Below are positions 3,373 to 62,794 of a stretch of DNA of 64,000 nt, in pieces. The notes under the pieces are model-generated. The model was not told the origin of the DNA. It saw nothing but the letters and a program-made list of their open reading frames with translations, and made no database searches. Every line of letters begins with the position of its first letter. Position 1 is the stretch's first letter. Source of the DNA: a virus (taxonomy: Duplodnaviria; Caudoviricetes); IMG/VR virus record IMGVR_UViG_2706795407_000001, positions 1 to 64,000 of that record. One strand, written 5' to 3'. The position numbers and the translations under genes were made by a program.

Positions 3373-4799
3373 ATCATTATTCCTCCGTTGGTGCAGTGTA
3401 TTCCTTGGGTACTGTCAGCGGGTTGAACGATGACGAGAGGCTGATCCTGGATGAACTGTATCGGTGTTGGAATTATAAGCTGACGCGTAACATTCTCCGG
3501 GCGCAGTATTACGATCACAAGAACCTTCTGAAGAACCTCGGTATTGCTATTCCGCCGCATTTGGCGAAGATTGATATCGCGTTGGGGTGGCCCGCCAAGG
3601 CTGTCGATGTGTTGGCTAGGCGTTGCAAGTTTGAGCGTTTCACGACGCCGAAGGATGGCGGCGGCGATCCGTTGGAGATTGTTCCGATGTTGAATCAGAA
3701 CGATTTCATGATGGAATTGCCGCAGGCCATCACTTCGACGTTTGTTCATTCATGCTCGTTCATTACCTTGTCTCAGGGTGAGGTTTCCCTCGGGGAACCG
3801 GAGGTGATGATCAATACGCAGTCTGCAATGTTCGGCTCGGGGCTGTGGGATTACCGCCGTAGACGGCTCCGTGCTGCTTTCTCTGTGACGAGTACGGATG
3901 AGTGGGGCCGGGTGCTGGACTGGCTGATGTTCATCCCCGGTGTGACGATCAGGGGGCGTTGGGACCGTAAATGGGAGATTGAGCGGTACTATCACACGCT
4001 TGATCGGTTGCCTGTTGAGGTTCTGCCGTACCAGCCCCGGTTGGATAGGCCTTTCGGGAAGTCCCGTATTTCTCGTTCTGTGATGGGGTTGACCGATTCG
4101 GCTTTGCGAACGTTGGTTCGTATGGAGATCGGCGCGGAGTTCTATTCGTCTCCGCAGCGGTGGATCATGGGCGCTGATGAAACCATGTTCACGGACGCCG
4201 AGGGCAACCCTGTGCCGCAATGGCAGTCTCTCGCGGGCCGGATTTGGGCCGCACCGGCTGATGAGGAAGGGAATCTTCCCCAGGTTGGGCAGTTCAATGC
4301 GGCTACCCCGATTCCTCACACGGAACAGTTGCGGTCTTTGGCTGCGATGTTCTGCGCGGAGACTTCACTGCCTTTGAACGAGTTGGGGATTATCCATGAT
4401 AATCCTGCTTCTGCGGAGGCTATTGAGGCGGCAGAGCGGTCGTTGATCATTGAGGCGAATTTCGCTATGGATTCCTGCCTCGGCCCTCGCCTGGTGCGCG
4501 CCATTCAGACGGCGTTGCAGATTCGTGAGGGCTGGGATGTTCTACCCCCCGAGGTTGAGCGGTTGGCTGCGCGCTGGTCGCCACCGGAGAACACGCCGAA
4601 ATCTGCGGCCACAGATGCGATGACGAAACTCGTCACGTCCATGCCGCATTTGGCTAAGTCTCCGATCCCCCTAGAGGAACTGGGTTGGGATGATGCGACT
4701 ATTCAGCGCGCCATGGCCGACATGGACAGGGTTGAATCAGAACAGCCCACACAAGACGCTAACCCCGTATCGACTGACGAAACGTTGGTCGGAGAGTAA
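3366..4799 (+). CDS. Portal protein (SPP1 Gp6-like)
   Basis: Position after terL, 477 aa; motifs RPFGKSRISRSV, AEFYSSPQRW, DNPASAEAI. Confidence 0.92.
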   Translation: MVNHYSSVGAVYSLGTVSGLNDDERLILDELYRCWNYKLTRNILRAQYYDHKNLLKNLGIAIPPHLAKIDIALGWPAKAVDVLARRCKFERFTTPKDGGGDPLEIVPMLNQNDFMMELPQAITSTFVHSCSFITLSQGEVSLGEPEVMINTQSAMFGSGLWDYRRRRLRAAFSVTSTDEWGRVLDWLMFIPGVTIRGRWDRKWEIERYYHTLDRLPVEVLPYQPRLDRPFGKSRISRSVMGLTDSALRTLVRMEIGAEFYSSPQRWIMGADETMFTDAEGNPVPQWQSLAGRIWAAPADEEGNLPQVGQFNAATPIPHTEQLRSLAAMFCAETSLPLNELGIIHDNPASAEAIEAAERSLIIEANFAMDSCLGPRLVRAIQTALQIREGWDVLPPEVERLAARWSPPENTPKSAATDAMTKLVTSMPHLAKSPIPLEELGWDDATIQRAMADMDRVESEQPTQDANPVSTDETLVGE

Positions 4800-4877
4800 T
4801 TCTTTACCACTTCACGTGGTTCATGCCCGCGCCGCAACGGTGTGCGGGAAAACAATTTCCTGAAACAGGAGTGTAAA

Positions 4878-5501
4878 TTGCCAGAGATTGAGGAAACTGT
4901 TACGACCGAAACGGTTGAACAGGAGCCCAGCATTGTTGCTGCCGATTCTCCCGAAGAGGAGCCTACCCCGAAGCCTACCGAAACGGTGGAGTTCTGGAAG
5001 CAGAAGGCTCGCGAGCAGGAGAAGCGCGCTAAGGCTAACGCCGCAGCCCAGGAGGCCCTTGAGGCATTGAAGGCCGAGCAGGCTAAGGCCCTTGAAGAGC
5101 TTGAGGCGTTCCGCGCCGAGAAGCTCACTCAAGAGGAGCGCGACGCGCAGCAGCGTGAGAAAGAGGCGCAGGAAAAGGCTGATGCTATCCGTGAACGCGA
5201 TGCGGCGCGCCAGGAGGCTCTGCGTTGGCGTATCGCGGCAAAGCACGGCATCACCGATGAGGATGCCGAGCTTTTCCTGACCGGCACGGACGAGGAAACC
5301 CTTACTAAGCAGGCGGAGCGATTCACTTCGCTGCAACCCAAGCCGGGTAAGGGCAATGTTATCCCCTCTGCTGGTCAGCAGCCCAAGGAACCCCCGTCTC
5401 TGGCGGAACAAATCAGGCTAGCTGAGGAAGCTAAGGACGTTGACACTGCTATGCGCTTGAAGGCGCAGCAGTTGGCGGCGCTTGCTCAGAATAACGTTTA
5501 A
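4878..5501 (+). CDS. Capsid scaffolding protein
   Basis: Acidic, coiled-coil E/K/A/Q-rich ORF between portal and capsid; AGGAG RBS before TTG at 4878 (ORF track starts at 4842). Confidence 0.85.
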   Translation: MPEIEETVTTETVEQEPSIVAADSPEEEPTPKPTETVEFWKQKAREQEKRAKANAAAQEALEALKAEQAKALEELEAFRAEKLTQEERDAQQREKEAQEKADAIRERDAARQEALRWRIAAKHGITDEDAELFLTGTDEETLTKQAERFTSLQPKPGKGNVIPSAGQQPKEPPSLAEQIRLAEEAKDVDTAMRLKAQQLAALAQNNV

Positions 5502-5513
5502 GGAGAGCCATAA

Positions 5514-6485
5514 ATGGCTGGTATTACTGGTACGGGCACTACTTTCAACCTGCCCAACTTTGTTGGTGAACTGTATTCGGCTTCGCCGGAGGACACCCCG
5601 TTCCTGTCCGCTATCGGCGGGCTGACCGGTGGTGTGCCGGTGCACGGTAGCTCTGTGTTCACCTGGTCGTCTTACGACCTGCGGGACGCGGAGGATGATC
5701 GTCAGCGCGTTGAGGGCAATGACGCCCCGACTGCTGAGGGTCGCGCTCGCGCGGTTGCGTCGAACGTCCTGGAAATCCACCAGGAAGCCGTGTCGGTGTC
5801 GTACACCAAGATCGCCGCGACCAACATGTTCGGCGGGACTGCCCCGTTCGTCGGTGGCCTGAATCCTGTTCAGGACGAGCTGGCCTGGCAGCTGCGGCAG
5901 GAATTCAAGCAGGTCGCGCGCGACGTTGAAAAGTCGTTCATCACGGGCACCTACAACATGCCTGCGAACAACTCGACTGCCCGCCGGACACGCGGCATCA
6001 TCGAGGCCATCTCGACCAACAGTGTGGATCTGGAGGATGCGTCGCTGACTGCTGACGATGTTCTGGATCTGATGCAGTCGGTTTGGGCGAGCGGTGGTAT
6101 TCAGGAGGCTGAGACCCGCACTCTGCTGGTTGGCGGCTCGGTTCGTCGTCAGCTGTCGAAGCTGTTCATCACCGATGCCGGATACAAGGAGCAGAGCCGC
6201 AACGTTGGTGGCGTGAGCGTCAAGACCATCGAGACTGATTTCGGTCTTTGCAACGTGATGCTGGACCGCTATGTTCCGGACGACACTCTGCTGGTTGTTT
6301 CGCTGGAGGAGTGCACCCCGCGTTTCCTGGAGATTCCGGGTAAGGGGCATTTCTTCGCTGAGCCGCTGGCTAAGACCGGCGCGAGCGACCGTGTTCAGCT
6401 TTACGGCGAGATCGGTCTGGAATACGGCAACGAGCGTAAGCACGGAAAACTTGAAGGCATCGGCGCTCCGAGTTCGGGCAGCTAA
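5514..6485 (+). CDS. Major capsid protein
   Basis: 323 aa after scaffold, strong RBS AAGGAGAG; N-terminus MAGITGTGTTFNLPNFVGELY typical of actinophage HK97-fold capsids; ends in GS. Confidence 0.9.
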   Translation: MAGITGTGTTFNLPNFVGELYSASPEDTPFLSAIGGLTGGVPVHGSSVFTWSSYDLRDAEDDRQRVEGNDAPTAEGRARAVASNVLEIHQEAVSVSYTKIAATNMFGGTAPFVGGLNPVQDELAWQLRQEFKQVARDVEKSFITGTYNMPANNSTARRTRGIIEAISTNSVDLEDASLTADDVLDLMQSVWASGGIQEAETRTLLVGGSVRRQLSKLFITDAGYKEQSRNVGGVSVKTIETDFGLCNVMLDRYVPDDTLLVVSLEECTPRFLEIPGKGHFFAEPLAKTGASDRVQLYGEIGLEYGNERKHGKLEGIGAPSSGS

Positions 6486-6503
6486 TCGCTAACGCTTGGA
6501 AAT

Positions 6504-6540
6504 GAGAATGGCTACCGACTAACAAGCGGTAGCCATTCTC
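6504..6540. other. Perfect 14-bp hairpin after the capsid gene, without a U-tract
   Basis: GAGAATGGCTACCG (6504-6517) / CGGTAGCCATTCTC (6527-6540). Confidence 0.85.
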
Positions 6541-6542
6541 CC

Positions 6543-6617
6543 AAGCCATACCCTGCCCGACCGTGCCGCGCCATATCCTGCCCGACCTGACCATGCCGAG
6601 CCCAACCGGGCCAAGCA
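6543..6617. repeat. 5-nt periodic NNNCC array, 15 units
   Basis: aagcc atacc ctgcc cgacc gtgcc gcgcc atatc ctgcc cgacc tgacc atgcc gagcc caacc gggcc aagca. Confidence 0.85.
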
Positions 6618-51712: not shown

Positions 51713-53695
51713 TTGCTTTCGTTCCGTCTATCCGACAACTTCCTGGAACCGTACAAAACTCTTGAACCCGACTGGGGATGGTCGGACGCGGCAGGCAACT
51801 CCATCGGAGAACTTACCTTTGTCCGCACCTATTCGCGGGCAAAAGAGGACGGGTCAAAGGAACGCTGGTGGGAGGTTTGCGAGCGTGTCATCAACGGAAT
51901 GTACTCCCTACTAAAAGACCACTGCCTCGCACACAGGCTCGAATGGAACGGAAACAAGGCGCGATCATCCGCCCAAGAAGCCTACGACCGTATGTTCCAT
52001 TTCAAGTGGACCCCGCCGGGGCGCGGACTATTCCAGATGGGCACACCGCTCGTCATGGAACAAAAGAACGCCGCCAGCTTGCAGAACTGCGCGATGGTGT
52101 CCACGGGGGACATGGAACGCCACGATCCCGGCTATCCGTTCGCTTGGACCACCGAGGCACTGATGCTCGGCATCGGGGTGGGGTTCGACACTCTGGGCGC
52201 GGGCAAGTTCGACGTGCTCCAGCCCAGCGACACGGTAGATGCCTACGAGATACCCGACACTCGTGAAGGTTGGGCTATCTCGGTCGGAAAGCTCATCAAC
52301 TCTTACCTGAAACCGGGCAAGGGCAGGGTTGAGTTTGATTACAGCCTGATCCGCCCGCACGGCGCTCCGATCAAAACATTCGGCGGCACCGCGTCAGGAC
52401 CAGAGCCTTTGCGTGAAGGGCATGAGCGCATCCGCAAGGTGCTGGATGAGAATGCCGGGTCTCCACTGTCAGCGAAAACCATTGTGGATATTCAGAACAT
52501 TATCGGCACGTTCGTCGTGGCGGGCAACACCCGGCGCAGCGCCGAACTCGCATTGGGATTGCCCACTGACGAGGGTTTTGTGGACCTGAAAAACAGTGAG
52601 GTCTACCCGGAGCGGCCCTGGGCGTTCATGTCGAACAACTCCATTTCCGCAAGCGTGGGTATGGATTATTCACCGTTTGTTGCCAATACGGCCATGAATG
52701 GTGAGCCGGGGTATGTGTGGTTGGATACTGCCCGCAAGTTTGGTCGTTTGATTGATCCGCCGGATTATAAAGACGCTCGAGTTGCGGGGTTCAACCCGTG
52801 CGTCGAACAGCCGTTGGAGTCATACGAAAACTGCTGTCTTGTGGAGGCGCATTTGAACCGCGCGGAGTCTAAAGAGGATTTTCTGCGTACCCTCAAGTTC
52901 GCTTACCTCTACGGGAAGGCTGTCACACTCTTGACCACGCCGTGGGAGAAGACGAACGCGGTGATGCTTCGCAATCGCCGTATCGGGCTTTCTACGACTG
53001 GTGTGGCAGGGTTTGTGGAAGAACACAGTCTGGCCGAGTATCGGGCGTGGGCCGATGAGGGTTACAAGCGGGTGTCTCACTGGGATACGACGTATTCTGA
53101 GTGGTTGGGCATTCGTGAGTCGATTCGTAAGACGACGGTGAAGCCTTCGGGTTCGGTGTCGTTGTTGTCGGGTGCTTCGCCTGGTGTGCATTGGCCTCCT
53201 GGTGGCGAGTTTTTCGTTCGGGCTATCAGGTTTGGTGCTCATGACAATACTTGGCGGCTGCTCGAAAAGGCGGGATACAAGGTTGAGGATGATGTTTATT
53301 CTCCGAACACGAAGGTGGTGTTTTTCCCGCTGCGGTCGAGCGTGAAGCGTGCGGAGGGGGATGTCTCGATTTTTGAGAAGATTCATCTTGCGGCGGAGGC
53401 CCAAAAATACTGGTCCGATAATGGTGTTTCGGTGACTGTCTCGTTCAATCCTGATACTGAGAGCGATGCTGTTGGTCAGGTGCTGAGCATGTACGAGGGG
53501 CAGTTGAAAGCTGTTTCGTTCCTGCCTATGGGCAATGAGGTGTATGAGCAGCAGCCGTATACGCGGATCACTGAGGCTGAGTATGAGGCGTTGTCTGCTG
53601 GGTTGAGGCGTGTTGATTTGGCCGAGTTGTATAACTCGCCAGAGGATGCTGTGGGTGAGGTTTATTGCACCACGGATTCCTGCACGATTCAGTAG
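51713..53695 (+). CDS. nrdJ: Class II (B12-dependent) ribonucleotide reductase
   Basis: FVRTYSR, PPGRGL, NPCVEQPL catalytic motif, TVKPSGSVS, C-terminal CTTDSC. Confidence 0.95.
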   Translation: MLSFRLSDNFLEPYKTLEPDWGWSDAAGNSIGELTFVRTYSRAKEDGSKERWWEVCERVINGMYSLLKDHCLAHRLEWNGNKARSSAQEAYDRMFHFKWTPPGRGLFQMGTPLVMEQKNAASLQNCAMVSTGDMERHDPGYPFAWTTEALMLGIGVGFDTLGAGKFDVLQPSDTVDAYEIPDTREGWAISVGKLINSYLKPGKGRVEFDYSLIRPHGAPIKTFGGTASGPEPLREGHERIRKVLDENAGSPLSAKTIVDIQNIIGTFVVAGNTRRSAELALGLPTDEGFVDLKNSEVYPERPWAFMSNNSISASVGMDYSPFVANTAMNGEPGYVWLDTARKFGRLIDPPDYKDARVAGFNPCVEQPLESYENCCLVEAHLNRAESKEDFLRTLKFAYLYGKAVTLLTTPWEKTNAVMLRNRRIGLSTTGVAGFVEEHSLAEYRAWADEGYKRVSHWDTTYSEWLGIRESIRKTTVKPSGSVSLLSGASPGVHWPPGGEFFVRAIRFGAHDNTWRLLEKAGYKVEDDVYSPNTKVVFFPLRSSVKRAEGDVSIFEKIHLAAEAQKYWSDNGVSVTVSFNPDTESDAVGQVLSMYEGQLKAVSFLPMGNEVYEQQPYTRITEAEYEALSAGLRRVDLAELYNSPEDAVGEVYCTTDSCTIQ

Positions 53696-53809: not shown

Positions 53810-54535
53810 TTGAAGGTTGCGCTGATCGCTGCGACACAAATTGATGTTGGCGCGCTCAAGGGTATTGGTTATCGGCCTGCCGATTTCCACGATGATGGTG
53901 ATGATGTTTTCGGCGATTATGATGCGGATGAGCTATCGGAATTCGCTGGCCGCAACTGCTACCGCTCGTTCGACCGGCCCAATCCCGCCACACGGGAGAA
54001 TGCTGACTATCTGAAGCACATCCTCGATGTAAGCCACGAGTCTGTGCTTGAGCACGCCTCGGCTACGTTCTACATCGAGGCCAGCCGGTCGGTGCTGACC
54101 GAGCTAGAGCGACACCGCCACCTGTCGTTCTCGGTTGTGAGTCAACGGTATGTGGACGCGAATAGCCTGCTGTGCAACATACCGCCTGGCATCAACAACG
54201 ATGAGGTAGACCCGGACTTCGACCTCTCGGATCGGATGTGTGATTACTACCAAGACGCGCTGAGGTTCTACAACGAAATTGTTGAGTATCTGACGCGGCA
54301 GGGCAAGTCGCGCAAGCAAGCGCGAGAAGCCGCTCGCTCCGTCCTGCCCAACATGACCGATAGTCCGATGGTCGTCACCGGTAACCACCGGGCGTGGCGG
54401 TACGTGATCAAGGCCCGCTGGCACGAGGCGGCGGACGCCGAGATTCGTGGGTTGGCGGGGGAGTTGTTGAAGCGGTTGCGGGAGATCGCCCCGAATTGTT
54501 ATCAGGATATTCCTGATAAACCGTATTCGTATTAG
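53810..54535 (+). CDS. thyX: FAD-dependent thymidylate synthase
   Basis: HESVLEH, RHRHLSFSVVSQRY (RHR-x7-S), AREAAR, GNHRAW. Confidence 0.95.
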   Translation: MKVALIAATQIDVGALKGIGYRPADFHDDGDDVFGDYDADELSEFAGRNCYRSFDRPNPATRENADYLKHILDVSHESVLEHASATFYIEASRSVLTELERHRHLSFSVVSQRYVDANSLLCNIPPGINNDEVDPDFDLSDRMCDYYQDALRFYNEIVEYLTRQGKSRKQAREAARSVLPNMTDSPMVVTGNHRAWRYVIKARWHEAADAEIRGLAGELLKRLREIAPNCYQDIPDKPYSY

Positions 54536-59267: not shown

Positions 59268-60608
59268 ATGGAGGAATACGTGGAGAAGAGTAACGGTCGT
59301 AGATATATCGGCAGTGATGTCTACACTGAGGCGCGTAAGCGTATCGCGTGGACGTTCGACAACTTCGAGCGGGTCTACCTGTCATTCTCCGGCGGTAAGG
59401 ACTCAGGTGTTCTCCTCAACCTCGCGTTGCAGCACATGGAGGAGACGGGCGAGACACGCAAGCTCGGCATCCAGATCATGGACAATGAAGCCAACTATGA
59501 GTTGTCCCTAGAGTTCATGCACCGCATGATGCGTAAGCATGCCGACAAGCTGGACATTTATTGGTGCTGCCTGCCCATCACGCTTCCCTGCACGGTGTCC
59601 AGTTATGCGGTGGACTGGCAGTGTTGGGGGGAGCAGGATAAGGACCGCTGGATACGTCCAATGCCTACCGATCCGTACATTGTTAACCTGGAGAACCATC
59701 CGTTCCCGTTCTTTAAAGAGAACATGCATTATGATGCGTTTTGGGATGGTTTCTCTGAGTGGTATTCGCAAGGTAAGTCGTGCGCGAACATGATCGGCAT
59801 TCGCGCGTCAGAAAGCCTGAACCGTTTCCGGGCGATCATGAACGACCGGAAAGAAATGCTCGGCGGACACTACTGGACCAAACGAAACACCGAACACACT
59901 TACAATGTGTACCCAATCTACGATTGGAAAGGTGAGGATATTTGGATCGCCAACGAAAAGTTCGACTGGGACTACAACAAGCTGTACGACATCTTCTACA
60001 AGGCGGGGATTCCGCTCAGTAAGATGCGTGTGGCGTCACCGTTTATGTCCGAGTCGAAGAGTTCGCTGGGGATGTATCGGGTGATTGATCCGCACGTGTG
60101 GGCGAAGCTGTGTGCCCGCGTTGGTGGGGCGAACTTTGTCGCCCAATACGGTAAACAGTTGTCTTACCGCTCGTTCACCCTCCCGAAGGGGCACACGTGG
60201 GAGTCGTTCACGAAGTTCCTCTTGGATACCCTGCCGGAAGAGGTGGCCGCAAATTTTAGGCAGCGCTTCGACCAATCGATTGAGTTTTGGGGCTCGGTCG
60301 GGCGCGGACTCCCCGAGGACATCATTGCCGACCTGGACCGCATTGGTGTAGATTACCGGATCAACGGCACCACACCGCACGGCGGCAATCATTTGCGTCG
60401 AGTGGTGATTGAGGTTCCGCCGGATCATTTGGATGAACTGCGAGCCCACCCCAGCATGGTTACTAGCTGGAAACGGTTTGCGATCACGATTCTGAAAAAT
60501 GATCACACCTGCAAATATCTGGGTCTGCAGCCTACGCAGGAGCAGCAGGCTAGGCAGAAGCAGATTCAGGCCAAGTACAAGTCACTGAATGGGAGGGCGA
60601 CTAAATGA
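59268..60608 (+). CDS. ibrA: IbrA-like PAPS-reductase/PP-loop protein with DUF3440-type C-terminus
   Basis: SFSGGKDS PP-loop, GIRASESLNR, YPIYDW, MRVASPF, SWKRFAITILKND. Confidence 0.9.
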   Translation: MEEYVEKSNGRRYIGSDVYTEARKRIAWTFDNFERVYLSFSGGKDSGVLLNLALQHMEETGETRKLGIQIMDNEANYELSLEFMHRMMRKHADKLDIYWCCLPITLPCTVSSYAVDWQCWGEQDKDRWIRPMPTDPYIVNLENHPFPFFKENMHYDAFWDGFSEWYSQGKSCANMIGIRASESLNRFRAIMNDRKEMLGGHYWTKRNTEHTYNVYPIYDWKGEDIWIANEKFDWDYNKLYDIFYKAGIPLSKMRVASPFMSESKSSLGMYRVIDPHVWAKLCARVGGANFVAQYGKQLSYRSFTLPKGHTWESFTKFLLDTLPEEVAANFRQRFDQSIEFWGSVGRGLPEDIIADLDRIGVDYRINGTTPHGGNHLRRVVIEVPPDHLDELRAHPSMVTSWKRFAITILKNDHTCKYLGLQPTQEQQARQKQIQAKYKSLNGRATK

Positions 60609-61504
60609 AGGTGATCAAGGGGAGTGACCTTGAGTCGATGGGTCGGGCGATGGAGTTCACGCCAGGCGGATTCTTTAGTCACCGGTTTCTGCTGGAGGAG
60701 GATGGCCTCGGCTATACTGTGACCCGCACTACGATCCCTGAGTGTCAGCCGCAGCGCTGGCATTACCCCGACCATCTTGAGTCTTGCTACTGCGTTTCCG
60801 GTGTTGGTGAGCTGGTCGATTTGAAGACTGGTGAGAAGCATCGGATCGAACCTGACACCCTTTATGCGCTCGATAAGCATGATGAGCACACTTTTCAGGC
60901 CATCGGCGGGCCGGTAACACTCATCTGCATGTTCACCCCCGCTCTGCGGGGGAATGAGGCGCATAAGGACGGGCACGACTACCGGAGCGATCTGTCGCCC
61001 GTGTACGCGGTGCGTTCCGTTCCCATTGAGAAGGTGACGGCGAACGATTACAACCCCAACAGTGTTGCCCCGCCCGAGATGGAACTGCTGGAAACGTCCA
61101 TCTGGGAGGACGGTTACACTCAGCCGGTTGTCACGGTGTACGACGAAGAGAATGACAAGTACATCGTGGTTGACGGTTTCCACCGTTACCTCACACTGCG
61201 GAACTCTGAACGTATCCGCGAGCGCGAGCGTGGAATGCTGCCGGTGGTGGTGCTGCGTAAAGATATGTCGGATCGCATGGCTTCGACCATCCGCCATAAC
61301 CGTGCGCGCGGCTCTCACAACATTGAACTCATGTCGCAGATCGTGGCCGAACTGGTCGAAATGGGCAAGGGCGATAGATGGATCTGCCAACATATCGGCA
61401 TGTCGCCAGACGAGCTACTGAGAATGAAACAGGTCACCGGCCTCGCATCCTTGTTCGCAAACAGGGAGTTTTCCGAGGCGTGGGAGCCGGAGAGTGACGA
61501 GTAA
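60605..61504 (+). CDS. ibrB: Fusion of ectoine-synthase (EctC)-like cupin and IbrB/ParB-like domain
   Basis: N-terminal RFLLEEDGLGY, HLESCYCVSGVGE, YALDKHDEH, FTPALRGNEAH; C-terminal ANDYNPN, DGYTQPVV, VVDGFHR, STIRHNRARG. Confidence 0.88.
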   Translation: MKVIKGSDLESMGRAMEFTPGGFFSHRFLLEEDGLGYTVTRTTIPECQPQRWHYPDHLESCYCVSGVGELVDLKTGEKHRIEPDTLYALDKHDEHTFQAIGGPVTLICMFTPALRGNEAHKDGHDYRSDLSPVYAVRSVPIEKVTANDYNPNSVAPPEMELLETSIWEDGYTQPVVTVYDEENDKYIVVDGFHRYLTLRNSERIRERERGMLPVVVLRKDMSDRMASTIRHNRARGSHNIELMSQIVAELVEMGKGDRWICQHIGMSPDELLRMKQVTGLASLFANREFSEAWEPESDE

Positions 61505-61868
61505 GCAGATATACAGGATCACATATCCGAACGGGAAAATCTATGTCGGCATGGACTTGACCGGGGACCGGTTGTACATCGGCAGCCCCAGTCTTCGGTC
61601 AGTCATTGCCGACGACCTCGGTATTGATCCGAACGTTTTCCCGAAACGTCCGTTAGCTCGTTCGACCGTTGTCGACGGGGCGGAGGATGACTACACGCTT
61701 TCGTTCCCGAATTTGGGTTTGACGTTGCGGAAGGAAATCCTTTGGGAGTCTGACGACGCGTCGGACGACGAGGTGCGATCCATGGAAATGGAGTTGATTC
61801 GCGCCACCAGGGCGTGCGACCCCGATATCGGGTATAATCGATCCCCCCGGAGGTGGATTGAAACTTAA
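61494..61868 (+). CDS. Stand-alone GIY-YIG-like nuclease
   Basis: IYRITYPNGKIYVG, E-x-ELI, IGYN. Confidence 0.75.
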   Translation: MTSKQIYRITYPNGKIYVGMDLTGDRLYIGSPSLRSVIADDLGIDPNVFPKRPLARSTVVDGAEDDYTLSFPNLGLTLRKEILWESDDASDDEVRSMEMELIRATRACDPDIGYNRSPRRWIET

Positions 61869-62256
61869 ACAAGTCTGGCATCCCGTTCATCAATGGGAAG
61901 AGGTGGCCCACAACATGTGGGGCAAGGTTGACGACAGGGCAGCCTACCTCGAAAAAGCCATACAGTTCACGGGCAACCACGAACTGTATGGCTTTTTTAT
62001 GCGCAGGGTATGCAAGGAATGGCCTATCAGCACCGAAAACGCGTTCACCGATCCCCACTTGAACCATAAGGCGTGGGTGGGCCATGCGGCGTGCGCGCTA
62101 GCCATGGGGTGTCCAGAGGATATAGTTCGTAAAGCGTGGAGTTACTTGTCGGATGAGCAAAAACTATTGGCAAATTCAGAAGCAAGCGCAGCAATATCCG
62201 ACTGGCGTAGGGCCTACATCGCGAATAAAGGCCTATGTGAAGATGTGGCAGGATAG
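61858..62256 (+). CDS. Hypothetical protein of the Ibr module
   Basis: WHPVHQWEE, WPISTENAFT, NHKAWVGHAAC, VRKAW; overlaps both neighbours. Confidence 0.75.
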   Translation: MKLKQVWHPVHQWEEVAHNMWGKVDDRAAYLEKAIQFTGNHELYGFFMRRVCKEWPISTENAFTDPHLNHKAWVGHAACALAMGCPEDIVRKAWSYLSDEQKLLANSEASAAISDWRRAYIANKGLCEDVAG

Positions 62257-62443
62257 ATGCTACGGCGACAACATCCCCGATGAGCTGCCGGATGGACTAT
62301 TGTGGTCGGGTCGAGCCCCCTCGTGGAAAGCTATAGCGATTTGTCTTCTGCGGAATGATTTCAGGTTGCACAAGTTGGGGTACACGACCGAGCCTGGCGA
62401 TTGGGCTCGGGCTGCCTTGGAGATGGCGAAGCGCAAGGGGTAG
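62153..62443 (+). CDS. Small paralog of the IbrA (DUF3440) C-terminal domain
   Basis: YVKMW...IPDE...PSWKAIAICLLRND..LGY parallels SWKRFAITILKND..LGL in IbrA; start uncertain. Confidence 0.7.
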   Translation: MSKNYWQIQKQAQQYPTGVGPTSRIKAYVKMWQDRCYGDNIPDELPDGLLWSGRAPSWKAIAICLLRNDFRLHKLGYTTEPGDWARAALEMAKRKG

Positions 62444-62596
62444 ACGGGTTGTGGGCGCATCCGCACTTGGGGCAGGATTCGCCGAGGAGGCGACCATCTT
62501 TCAGGTACATCCATCCCAGTGTGACCATGGCTTCATCTTATCGTGCGGGTGGGCAAAAGAAAATCCCCCTAACCGTTTGGGGCTAGGGGGATTTTC

Positions 62597-62794
62597 TTAT
62601 CCGATGATCTCGCCGGTAGCGGGGTGGCGGAGAGGCGGCCGGTTCTTGTATGCCTCGGTGGCGAACCATGCTTCGCGGGCTTTCTCGTAGCGGCGAACCG
62701 GGTTGCCGGTGTAACGTGCGCCGTCGCGGTAGGCGTCGAGGGCGTTGCCCGCGTTGACGTATTCGTTGAACACGGCCTGGTCGGTGGGGTTCAT
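62597..62794 (-). CDS. Reverse-oriented moron, hypothetical protein
   Basis: RBS AGAAAGGA and own promoter. Confidence 0.65.
   Translation of the reverse strand: MNPTDQAVFNEYVNAGNALDAYRDGARYTGNPVRRYEKAREAWFATEAYKNRPPLRHPATGEIIG

Follow-up and report, generated by a model that had tools for sequence, protein, structure and literature searches.

The locus analysed here raises the question of what chemistry a phage gains from an IbrA-type PP-loop enzyme, an ectoine synthase-like cupin and an IbrB-type ParB domain encoded in one run of overlapping genes. Of the enzyme genes in phages and prophages that still lack an explanation, IbrA/IbrB pairs rank among the most common; hundreds of cultured phages carry them, with hosts that include Streptococcus, Flavobacterium and Mycobacterium, and the pair of E. 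coli K-12 is YbdN/YbdM. In the searchable literature (IbrA/IbrB, DUF3440, PAPS reductase with ParB, ectoine synthase with ParB, XCL1123), no study on the biochemistry of IbrAB or of the cassette came up. The window is a stretch of 64,000 nt of viral DNA (IMG/VR record IMGVR_UViG_2706795407_000001, positions 1 to 64,000) and belongs to a 90-kb phage genome, a distant relative of Cluster J mycobacteriophages. By analogy with described systems, we propose that this cassette, widespread in phages and never characterised, probably adds an unusual chemical group to nucleic acid.

A conserved unit of four genes and five domains

The original prediction had named five overlapping ORFs, and all of them are present exactly where it placed them, with consecutive overlaps of 4, 11, 11 and 104 nt; the second, at 60605-61504, encodes both the cupin and the ParB domain. 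The features of the locus are as follows.

59268..60608, + strand: IbrA-type enzyme (446 aa), with an N-terminal PP-loop/PAPS-reductase-fold adenine-nucleotide alpha-hydrolase domain and a C-terminal DUF3440
60605..60988, + strand: EctC-like Fe-cupin domain, residues 1-128 of the cupin::ParB fusion protein
60995..61504, + strand: IbrB-type ParB/Srx domain, covering fusion-protein residues 131-299; it has a DGFHR motif and a putatively HTH-like C-terminal part
61494..61868, + strand: g3, a small GIY-YIG-like gene, a lineage-specific insertion at the ParB/g4 junction
61858..62256, + strand: g4, a conserved all-helical partner protein (132 aa), with a TTG start behind GGAGG
62153..62443, + strand: g5 (96 aa), a free-standing copy of the domain at the C-terminus of IbrA (DUF3440 C-terminal)
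62558..62597, no strand assigned: GC-rich hairpin between an A-run and a T-run, read directly from the sequence

The location in a replication region was also borne out, as the genes lie in a nucleotide-metabolism and replication block in which endonuclease VII, RNR, thymidylate synthase, prim-pol and exonuclease come before the cassette and a helicase after it.

Searched by megablast in 50,697 phage records, the cassette has no match; its relatives are visible only at the protein level. A gene-neighbourhood survey had been suggested as a check of the five-gene module and was run. Among 48 cupin-bearing loci, all five domains (IbrA, EctC-like cupin, IbrB with ParB_N, g4 and g5) occur together in 43. 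A cupin::ParB fusion is seen in 20 of the loci, in 27 the two domains are encoded by separate neighbouring genes, and 1 has them reordered. g3 is missing from every related locus, and the conserved cassette therefore consists of four genes that carry these five domains. The module thus stands as one functional unit, on the grounds of co-occurrence, gene fusions and reordering, but g3 does not belong to it.

Natural fusions are known for cupin::ParB, ParB::g4 (P0391 / L061) and g4::g5 (L047 and at least 11 representatives), and because such fusions exist together with reordered variants, the sequences indicate that the cassette products work as one complex. A scan of genomes for the fusion protein found two fused forms only; the MAG contigs that carry them are 3-4 kb long and probably of phage origin. 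An apparent IbrA::cupin fusion in L021 (a 587-aa ORF) was rejected, as one in-frame stop separates the two genes on translation.

Neighbourhood clusters of 47 loci contain no further conserved genes around the cassette and the backbones differ; the neighbours are always DNA replication, recombination or packaging genes. In the Cluster J phage Thibault, the cassette is missing at the corresponding site. As part of the joint explanation that we consider best, and tentatively, we regard the cassette as a self-contained, horizontally mobile extended IbrA/IbrB system of phages.

g3 had been predicted to be a GIY-YIG protein and a module member that perhaps discriminates unmodified DNA. The second proposal finds no support, g3 being a unique insertion at the ParB/g4 junction; in the closest relative, an ectoine hydroxylase gene occupies this junction. 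Leads to the GIY-YIG label are the names that NCBI gives to some of its 624 homologues (~98 aa, mainly from Mycobacterium and Actinomycetia) and its protein-atlas neighbours, which are PF01541 (55% of members) and SegE_GIY-YIG families with scores of 0.94-0.98, but g3 and 26 homologues have no Pfam, NCBIfam, PHROG or PDB-profile match. The copy in the window carries a 25-residue insertion. Conserved residues are Y7, Y17-V-G, E98 and N115, in a spacing that we take to be GIY-YIG-like (compare I-TevI and UvrC), and R79 is conserved elsewhere, with no conserved Arg ~10 residues after the YIG. Assignment as a GIY-YIG nuclease stays at the level of a lead. g3, whose relatives are mycobacterial, is a lineage-specific insertion of a stray free-standing gene unrelated to the cassette.

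IbrA and IbrB belong to known families

IbrA matches PF11922 (DUF3440) at 6e-55 (186 bits, cut-off 25), PF01507 (PAPS_reduct) at 1.5e-10 (41.8 bits, cut-off 22.5) and phrog_2302 at 4e-126. The PP-loop SGGKDS (S41-G-G-K-D-S46) is invariant across 35 aligned IbrA sequences, and a cluster of four cysteines (C100, C101, C108 and C119) is specific to the IbrA subfamily of the cassette. The AF2 model (pLDDT 80.6) aligns in VIA with Z of 13.5-15.7 to the FAD synthase PAPS domain, APS/PAPS reductases and CysD, and this predicted structure shows IbrA to have the fold of a PP-loop ATP-pyrophosphatase of the PAPS-reductase / CysD / FAD-synthase branch, in agreement with the original prediction. For DUF3440, no recognisable fold relatives were found, the search with the whole IbrA model being filled by PP-loop domain matches.

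The ParB_N match of IbrB spans residues 136-200 with an E-value of 6.7e-5 for the IbrB part alone and 3e-4 in the whole fusion protein; its score of 21-23 bits lies under the Pfam cut-off of 26.3. The DGFHR motif can be read in the sequence, the fusion protein matches phrog_2159 at 8e-92, and IbrB is 55-67% identical to annotated IbrB proteins of Streptococcus and Lactobacillus phages. Taken together, these profile and sequence matches show that IbrB contains a ParB/Srx domain, and the fusion of an EctC-like cupin to ParB/IbrB, as predicted for the second gene, is thereby substantiated. The C-terminal 100 residues of IbrB contain no significant HTH or other DNA-binding domain; one IbrB relative has a weak HTH_37 match (E=0.05).

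An ectoine synthase-like cupin with an intact iron site

The cupin matches PF06339 (Ectoine_synth) at 1.3e-32 (113 bits, cut-off 27) and the EctC structure PDB 5bxx at 6.5e-20, and scores 118.1 with the NCBIfam ectoine synthase model NF009806, below its cut-off of 128. In EctC, the iron ligands are Glu-57, Tyr-84 as well as His-92 (P. lautus numbering), and Trp-21 and Asn-38 are strictly conserved substrate/product contacts of true ectoine synthases (PMC6344544). The corresponding ligands E59, Y87 and H95 are kept in 40 of 40 phage copies, as are four substrate contacts (S25, R27, T42 and Y54), so that by sequence the protein is shown to be an ectoine-synthase homologue with an intact iron site. 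The equivalent of Trp-21 is Phe or a gap and that of Asn-38 is Thr or His, with Trp and Asn each found in none of the 40. Genes of ectA/ectB type were not detected in the 90-kb genome (no Aminotran_3 or Acetyltransf_1 match, positive controls detected) or in the neighbourhood clusters of the 47 loci.

Five contigs (L023, L054, L064, L065 and L066) carry an EctD-type (ectoine-hydroxylase-like) gene inside the cassette; that of L054 scores 371 bits with TIGR02408 (cut-off 336.5) and matches EctD in the PDB at 1e-69. In L023, a MycE/TylF-type O-methyltransferase domain (PDB 3ssm, 5e-30) lies between cupin and ParB. The conserved EctC iron ligands and these embedded genes of relatives suggest that the cupin probably handles an ectoine-like moiety. 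Its proposed role in making or tailoring a small moiety gains from this, as the enzyme looks catalytically intact.

g4 and g5 as conserved partners

g4 is, as described in the original prediction, rich in Trp and His (7 of each in 132 residues). It is present in 43 of the 47 clustered loci, and its family comprises 827 representative clusters in 1.84 billion proteins. The AF2 model is all-helical (pLDDT 93.5) and has no match in the PDB (best Foldseek E 2.3, best VIA-align wide Z 4.4); BFVD holds only the XCL1123 orthologue and the atlas no usable match, which is no proof of a new fold. Together with g3, g4 and g5 gave nothing significant against Pfam, NCBIfam, PADLOC and PDB sequence profiles. 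g5 matches phrog_15645 at 1e-6, and the profile built from its family (A3) matches the C-termini of IbrA proteins, down to 6e-19, which agrees with its description as a mini paralog of the IbrA C-terminus. By sequence conservation, both are shown to be conserved partners of the cassette. As g4 and DUF3440 are without recognisable fold relatives, two of the five domains give no mechanistic information.

In the 104-nt overlap of g4 and g5, all three codon positions are constrained, with third-position identity in the g4 frame of 0.649 versus 0.424 outside. A programmed frameshift joining the two genes was rejected: g5 has its own ATG directly after a stop, loci differ in the relative frame (+1 for most, +2 for others), and elsewhere the two genes are truly fused in frame.

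Comparison with known systems

Classic IbrA/IbrB pairs (the E. coli ECOR-9 island, YbdN/YbdM of K-12; PHROG 2302 and 2159), found in phages such as Streptococcus phages CHPC877 and CHPC1062 and Lactobacillus phage phiAQ113, share with the window the two core proteins (IbrA with PAPS_reduct, DUF3440 and a PP-loop, IbrB with ParB_N) and, in phages, an early or replication-proximal placement. The window IbrA is only 38-42% identical to classic IbrA and has the extra four-Cys cluster; in the cassette, IbrA precedes IbrB and three conserved components are added (the EctC-like cupin, g4 and g5), whereas the classic loci L048-L052 and L056-L058 lack cupin and g4.

A three-gene variant, IbrB-g4-IbrA, occurs in Pseudomonas phage Amjad_SA (OP917824) and in the metagenomic loci L061 and L062. 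Here the g4 family lies between or beside IbrB and IbrA, with ParB and g4 fused in L061, and the IbrA C-terminus gives the 6e-19 match to the g5 profile, but there is no cupin and no separate g5, and the gene order differs. The g5 of the window type looks like either a remnant or a duplicate of such a downstream IbrA's C-terminal domain.

Among cultured phages, the full cassette was found only in Pseudoalteromonas phage XCL1123 (MN313256), with the genes in the same order. Its proteins are 67% (IbrA), 80% (ParB), 59% (g4) and 49% (g5) identical to those of the window and include a 'PAPS reductase' and an 'ectoine synthase/ParB multidomain protein' by annotation, although cupin and ParB are two adjacent CDS and the g3 insertion is absent. 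XCL1123 has a marine gammaproteobacterial host and a 45.8-kb backbone unrelated to that of the window phage, and we found no functional study of this cassette in the literature.

The cupin shares with EctC of the EctC/EctD compatible-solute pathway (PDB 5bxx, 5onm-5ono, 3emr, 4mhr) identical iron ligands and most active-site residues, and cassette relatives carry EctD-type hydroxylases; in contrast to EctC, it comes without ectA/ectB, has Trp-21 and Asn-38 replaced and is linked, by fusion or coupling, to ParB and a PP-loop enzyme. PMC5924519 discusses unexplained 'solitary EctC-type' proteins, which the cupin resembles.

Finally, a ParB/Srx-fold protein accompanies a DNA-altering enzyme in DndB/DndC, which has the same two folds as IbrB/IbrA, in DpdB/DpdA, in phage thymine dioxygenases (PMC13229309) and in ParB-methyltransferase fusions (phrog_498), whereas the cassette core has no sulfur-transfer enzyme, transglycosylase, dioxygenase or methyltransferase. 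ParB-like partners are described for Dnd, Dpd and the thymine dioxygenases, and the latter need ParB on dsDNA (PMC12839542, PMC13229309).

DNA modification and competing readings

DNA modification is the best-supported reading, and we favour it tentatively, on the strength of the ParB-like partners of the Dnd, Dpd and thymine dioxygenase systems and of the position between replication genes. By analogy with DndB/DndC, DpdB and the ParB-dependent thymine dioxygenases, we infer that phage DNA is the target. IbrB would deliver the cassette enzymes to DNA, and IbrA would adenylate an oxygen (of a carboxylate, or of a base or amide carbonyl) for attack by a nitrogen nucleophile. The cupin would then perform an EctC-type iron-assisted ring closure to an ectoine-like cyclic amidine group, which in some relatives may be hydroxylated (EctD-like) and O-methylated (MycE/TylF-like); the end product would most likely be a modified base that shields phage DNA against host nucleases. 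The fullest form of this proposal, which we consider unlikely as a whole, is a new DNA hypermodification class, in which the amidine is amino-acid-derived and is put on the base through IbrA adenylation, the cupin closes the ring on a DNA- or IbrA-bound intermediate, IbrB carries the machine along DNA, some phages add the EctD-type and MycE-type steps, and a scaffold of g4 and g5 docks IbrA on IbrB. Against DNA modification count the two domains without fold relatives and the absence of EctA/EctB-type genes for the canonical substrate.

The lack of a detected DNA-binding domain in IbrB and the fact that free small molecules are the normal substrates of EctC and EctD, with MycE/TylF relatives acting on small molecules too, weigh against DNA modification and favour instead a free small molecule or nucleotide conjugate, made or consumed by the cassette, for instance an IbrA-activated ectoine-like compound serving metabolic takeover or as an anti-defence metabolite, with ParB/Srx as a regulatory or catalytic subunit that binds NTP, in the manner of sulfiredoxin. 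The PP-loop enzymes closest in fold (CysD, FAD synthase, PAPS reductase) also take small substrates. On the other hand, the greatest similarity of the ParB_N domain is to ParB-like proteins of phages, the cassette is always embedded among DNA-processing genes, it is difficult to see why a soluble pathway would have its metabolic cupin fused to ParB, and the loss of Trp-21 and Asn-38, itself a difficulty for DNA modification, removes two residues strictly conserved for the free substrate/product. We judge this alternative rather improbable.

A regulatory role, with IbrB as a ParB/KorB-like DNA-binding switch and the enzymes sensing or producing its ligand, appears clearly less probable still. 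It descends from the annotation history: PMC4541368 and PMC4490671 cite E. coli ECOR-9 genetics, and in the former, as in SEED-type annotations, IbrAB are defined genetically as activators of eib expression and not as modification enzymes, which also speaks against DNA modification. Proteins of the ParB fold can act as NTP-dependent switches and have many fused domains (PMC12704722), and the K-12 homologues ybdNM form an operon under tight repression (PMC9068703). Turnover chemistry is favoured instead by the invariant catalytic PP-loop and by the cupin's intact iron site, a hydroxylase and an O-methyltransferase are unexpected inside the cassette of a regulator, and an effect on expression could itself follow from DNA modification.

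The target could also be RNA, such as a tRNA of host or phage whose base carbonyl is modified in the way of TilS, TtcA and NcsA, for escape from anticodon nucleases or retuned translation. TilS attaches lysine to a base via an adenylated carbonyl, a chemistry close to that proposed for the cassette, and tRNA-modifying PP-loop enzymes are among the structural neighbours of IbrA (Z of 9.5-11.9 for TilS/MesJ, 11.3 for NcsA and 8.9 for TtuA). We consider this very unlikely, as the best fold matches lie in the PAPS-reductase branch and not among tRNA enzymes, no RNA-binding domain was found, and the known ParB-like partners serve DNA systems. Dnd-like phosphorothioation, with IbrA as DndC and IbrB as DndB, is highly improbable despite the shared fold pair, weak PADLOC DndC matches to IbrA (E=1.7e-5), the subfamily-specific four-Cys cluster and a weak DGQHR/DndB-like gene in the L040 cassette, since the DndC matches span only ~60 residues, equivalents of cysteine desulfurase (DndA/IscS), DndD and DndE are absent in and near the 47 clustered loci, and cupin, hydroxylase and methyltransferase would have no role in sulfur insertion.

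Beyond a bare IbrA/IbrB pair, the cassette offers chemical handles, namely a cupin with a catalytic mechanism understood in atomic detail, add-on enzymes (a hydroxylase and a methyltransferase) that hint at the kind of moiety handled, and a natural fusion chain that predicts subunit contacts. Should the product be a DNA adduct, it would define a new family of phage DNA hypermodification, with a bearing on restriction evasion, sequencing artefacts and enzyme tools, and would give a first function to 'solitary EctC-type' proteins and to DUF3440. Two cultured phages, XCL1123 with the full cassette and Amjad_SA with the three-gene form, make the question testable.

The downstream end of the cassette

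The hairpin at 62558..62597 is, from its sequence, likely a bidirectional terminator closing the transcription unit of the cassette. A weak, sub-threshold Rfam ctRNA match falls on the same hairpin.

A conserved four-gene cassette in the replication region

Five plus-strand open reading frames occupy positions 59268-62443 of the window, which covers the initial 64 kb of an IMG/VR virus record of 90,460 bp, and they overlap successively by 4, 11, 11 and 104 nt. Genes for endonuclease VII, ribonucleotide reductase, thymidylate synthase, a DNA-binding protein, a prim-pol and a PD-(D/E)XK exonuclease lie on the 5' side, and a helicase gene lies on the 3' side.

Features of the cassette and its surroundings
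51713-53695: ribonucleotide reductase gene, a few kb 5' of the cassette
53810-54535: thymidylate-synthase-family gene (phrog_85), a few kb 5' of the cassette
Gene 1, plus strand: IbrA, 446 aa; PAPS_reduct and DUF3440; phrog_2302
Gene 2, plus strand: EctC-like cupin fused to IbrB (cupin::ParB), 299 aa; Ectoine_synth at residues 1-126 (113 bits), ParB_N at 136-200; phrog_2159 (8e-92)
Genes 3 and 4, plus strand: g3 (small, GIY-YIG-like) and g4 (all-helical partner protein); no match in Pfam, PHROG, NCBIfam or PADLOC
Gene 5, plus strand: g5; weak match to phrog_15645, a family that matches the DUF3440 region of gene 1 as well
62558-62597: perfect, GC-rich hairpin between an A-run and a T-run, 3' of g5
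62597-62794, minus strand: convergent 65-aa ORF with a GGAG ribosome-binding site, occupying the gap before the helicase gene; no family match

The hairpin is likely a bidirectional terminator closing the cassette unit; the Rfam model ctRNA_p42d also falls on it, at a sub-threshold 28.7 bits against a threshold of 50. The reading frames, their domain matches and the flanking replication genes bear out the anatomy and context given in the original prediction, which had also taken the locus for a five-gene module with the GIY-YIG protein perhaps discriminating unmodified DNA. These last two points did not hold. By tblastn against 50 related IMG/VR loci and Pseudoalteromonas phage XCL1123 (MN313256), IbrA, cupin, ParB, g4 and g5 co-occur in nearly all contigs that are long enough, with all five domains present in 43 of the 48 cupin loci, and g3 is found in none. 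The conserved cassette thus consists of four genes, not five. In its closest relative (L054, fusion protein 82% identical), the ParB/g4 junction that holds g3 in the window holds an ectoine hydroxylase gene. Homologues of g3 (n=624) are mostly proteins of about 98 aa from Mycobacterium, Mycolicibacterium and other Actinomycetia; HMM libraries and PDB profiles do not recognise them, several carry the NCBI name GIY-YIG, and atlas neighbours bear the GIY-YIG and SegE_GIY-YIG families. Its absence from related loci, the different gene at the L054 junction and the actinobacterial homologues mark g3 as a lineage-specific, free-standing insertion, probably Seg-like, acquired in an actinobacterial setting.

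Backbone and cassette have separate histories, a Cluster J-like backbone being mismatched with an aquatic-type cassette. The window prim-pol is 60% identical to that of Cluster J (Omegavirus) mycobacteriophages, one of which, Thibault, has small hypothetical genes only between prim-pol and helicase; cassette relatives are unrelated, mainly aquatic viral contigs and phage XCL1123. Clustering of all ORFs from 47 loci revealed no conserved neighbour outside the cassette itself, which is self-contained and mobile. The sole recurrent neighbour was a VRR-NUC-like nuclease gene (about 127 aa) on the 5' side in 10 of the 47 (e.g., L004:3995-4342).

Fusions and a dual-coding overlap within the cassette

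The arrangement of cupin and ParB varies among the 48 cupin loci, from fused (20) to adjacent separate genes (27) and, in one case, reordered. Gene order shifts as well, being IbrA-cupin-g4-g5-ParB in one locus (L041) and ParB-g4-g5-IbrA-cupin in another (L027). A g4 profile run against 1.84 billion proteins retrieved 827 representative clusters; the top 150 representatives include at least 11 g4::g5 fusions and one ParB::g4 fusion with IbrA next downstream (P0391). A clean g4::g5 open frame of 250 residues is present in L047, and a three-gene form, IbrB-g4-IbrA, occurs in Pseudomonas phage Amjad_SA (OP917824) and in metagenomes. At the C-terminus of IbrA in this form, the g5 profile gives a match of 6e-19, in agreement with the earlier suggestion of a mini IbrA C-terminal paralog. 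Together, the fusions, the three-gene form and the profile match identify g5 as a free-standing copy of the C-terminal domain of IbrA, and the cassette products are predicted to form one complex. From the chain of fusions, the expected contacts are those of cupin with ParB, ParB with g4, g4 with g5, and g4 with the C-terminal domain of IbrA. A candidate IbrA::cupin fusion in L021 was rejected, as a single stop codon lies between them.

The g4/g5 overlap (window 62153-62256) is 100-130 nt long and is kept in about 40 related loci in relative frame +1 or +2; in other phages g4 and g5 are fused in a single frame. Within the overlap, identity at g4-frame third positions is 65%, versus 42% outside it. 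All three codon positions are constrained, making this a genuine long dual-coding stretch. Two decayed cassette copies were also seen, one in which g4 codons 1-19 run into the g5 tail through a deletion (L003:6842-7076) and one with an in-frame stop within the IbrA gene (L035:4652-6001).

Catalytic features of IbrA and the cupin

The predicted structure of IbrA (pLDDT 80.6, with low confidence at residues 110-115) places its first 270 residues in the PAPS-reductase branch of PP-loop enzymes (FAD synthase PAPS domain, Z 15.7; APS reductase, 15.1; CysD, 14.6), followed by weaker matches to TilS, NcsA and the GMP and NAD synthetases. The SGGKDS motif is invariant. A cysteine cluster, C100-C101-x6-C108-x10-C119 (window 59565-59624), is restricted to the cupin-associated subfamily, classic IbrA (from pairs lacking cupin and g4) retaining C119 alone, and it may constitute a metal or Fe-S site. 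For g4, a confident model of seven helices (pLDDT 93.5) gave no convincing structural relative in fold searches.

The cupin domain aligns with solved EctC. Using positions from the P. lautus structures (PMC6344544), we checked 40 distinct phage copies, all of which keep the three iron ligands together with Ser-23, Arg-25, Thr-40 and Tyr-52. Trp-21 and Asn-38 are strictly conserved in true EctC, the former packing against substrate and product and the latter holding the substrate carboxylate (PMC6344544); in all 40 phage cupins Trp-21 is Phe or deleted and Asn-38 is Thr or His. Conserved iron ligands combined with constant replacement of these two residues suggest that the chemistry (iron-assisted amine attack on an amide carbonyl, or the reverse) is probably kept on a different substrate. 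With two defining residues gone and no ectAB, the window cupin falls outside true EctC; the 90,460-bp phage genome contains no EctA/EctB-type gene.

EctD-type hydroxylases have been recruited to related cassettes repeatedly and independently, once with an O-methyltransferase. The L054 gene scores 371 bits on the ectoine hydroxylase model TIGR02408 (cut-off 336.5) and matches EctD structures at 1e-69; EctD-like genes with a mutual identity of just 33-44% lie immediately 3' of IbrA in four loci (L023, L064, L065 and L066). In L023, one 499-residue protein (5053-6552) carries a MycE/TylF-type SAM O-methyltransferase domain (PDB 3ssm, 5e-30) between the EctC-like cupin and the IbrB ParB, directly 3' of an EctD-like dioxygenase gene (4118-5047). 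This recurrent recruitment argues that the cupin would act on an ectoine-like ring open to decoration.

Proposed function and relation to known systems

Beyond the folds, catalytic motifs, conserved co-occurrence and fusions observed for the cassette, we tentatively propose, at somewhat less than an even chance, that it modifies phage DNA. IbrB would direct the complex to DNA, IbrA would adenylate an oxygen to permit attack by a nitrogen, the cupin would close or open a cyclic amidine, and the product would be a base adduct. This proposal draws on known pairings of ParB-fold proteins with DNA-modifying enzymes: DndB accompanies the PAPS-reductase-like DndC and DpdB accompanies DpdA (PMC12839542), and phage thymine dioxygenases require a ParB-like activator on double-stranded DNA (PMC13229309). 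The hydroxylase and O-methyltransferase additions resemble tailoring steps of a hypermodification or a natural-product pathway. A pathway acting on a free small molecule is an unlikely alternative. A role in regulation, in line with the historical label "co-activator of prophage gene expression", appears distinctly unlikely, and modification of RNA slightly more so. Dnd-like phosphorothioation is highly improbable, since the desulfurase, DndD and DndE are never present, which also sets the window locus outside Dnd.

By architecture the locus belongs with IbrA/IbrB, and the cassette is an extended form of this known, still unexplained system. Our literature search returned no report on IbrAB biochemistry or on the cassette, and GenBank labels the XCL1123 genes only as "PAPS reductase" and "ectoine synthase/ParB multidomain protein". 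Newly added here are g3 as an insertion, the link to EctD and an O-methyltransferase, the systematic Trp-21/Asn-38 replacement, the chain of ParB::g4 and g4::g5 fusions, the subfamily-specific cysteine cluster and the mismatch of backbone and cassette.

In one further cassette, a 355-aa gene lies between IbrA and cupin (L040:4934-5998) and has a weak, below-cut-off DGQHR/DndB-like match (TIGR03187, E=1e-5); its product may be a second ParB-superfamily member of that cassette.
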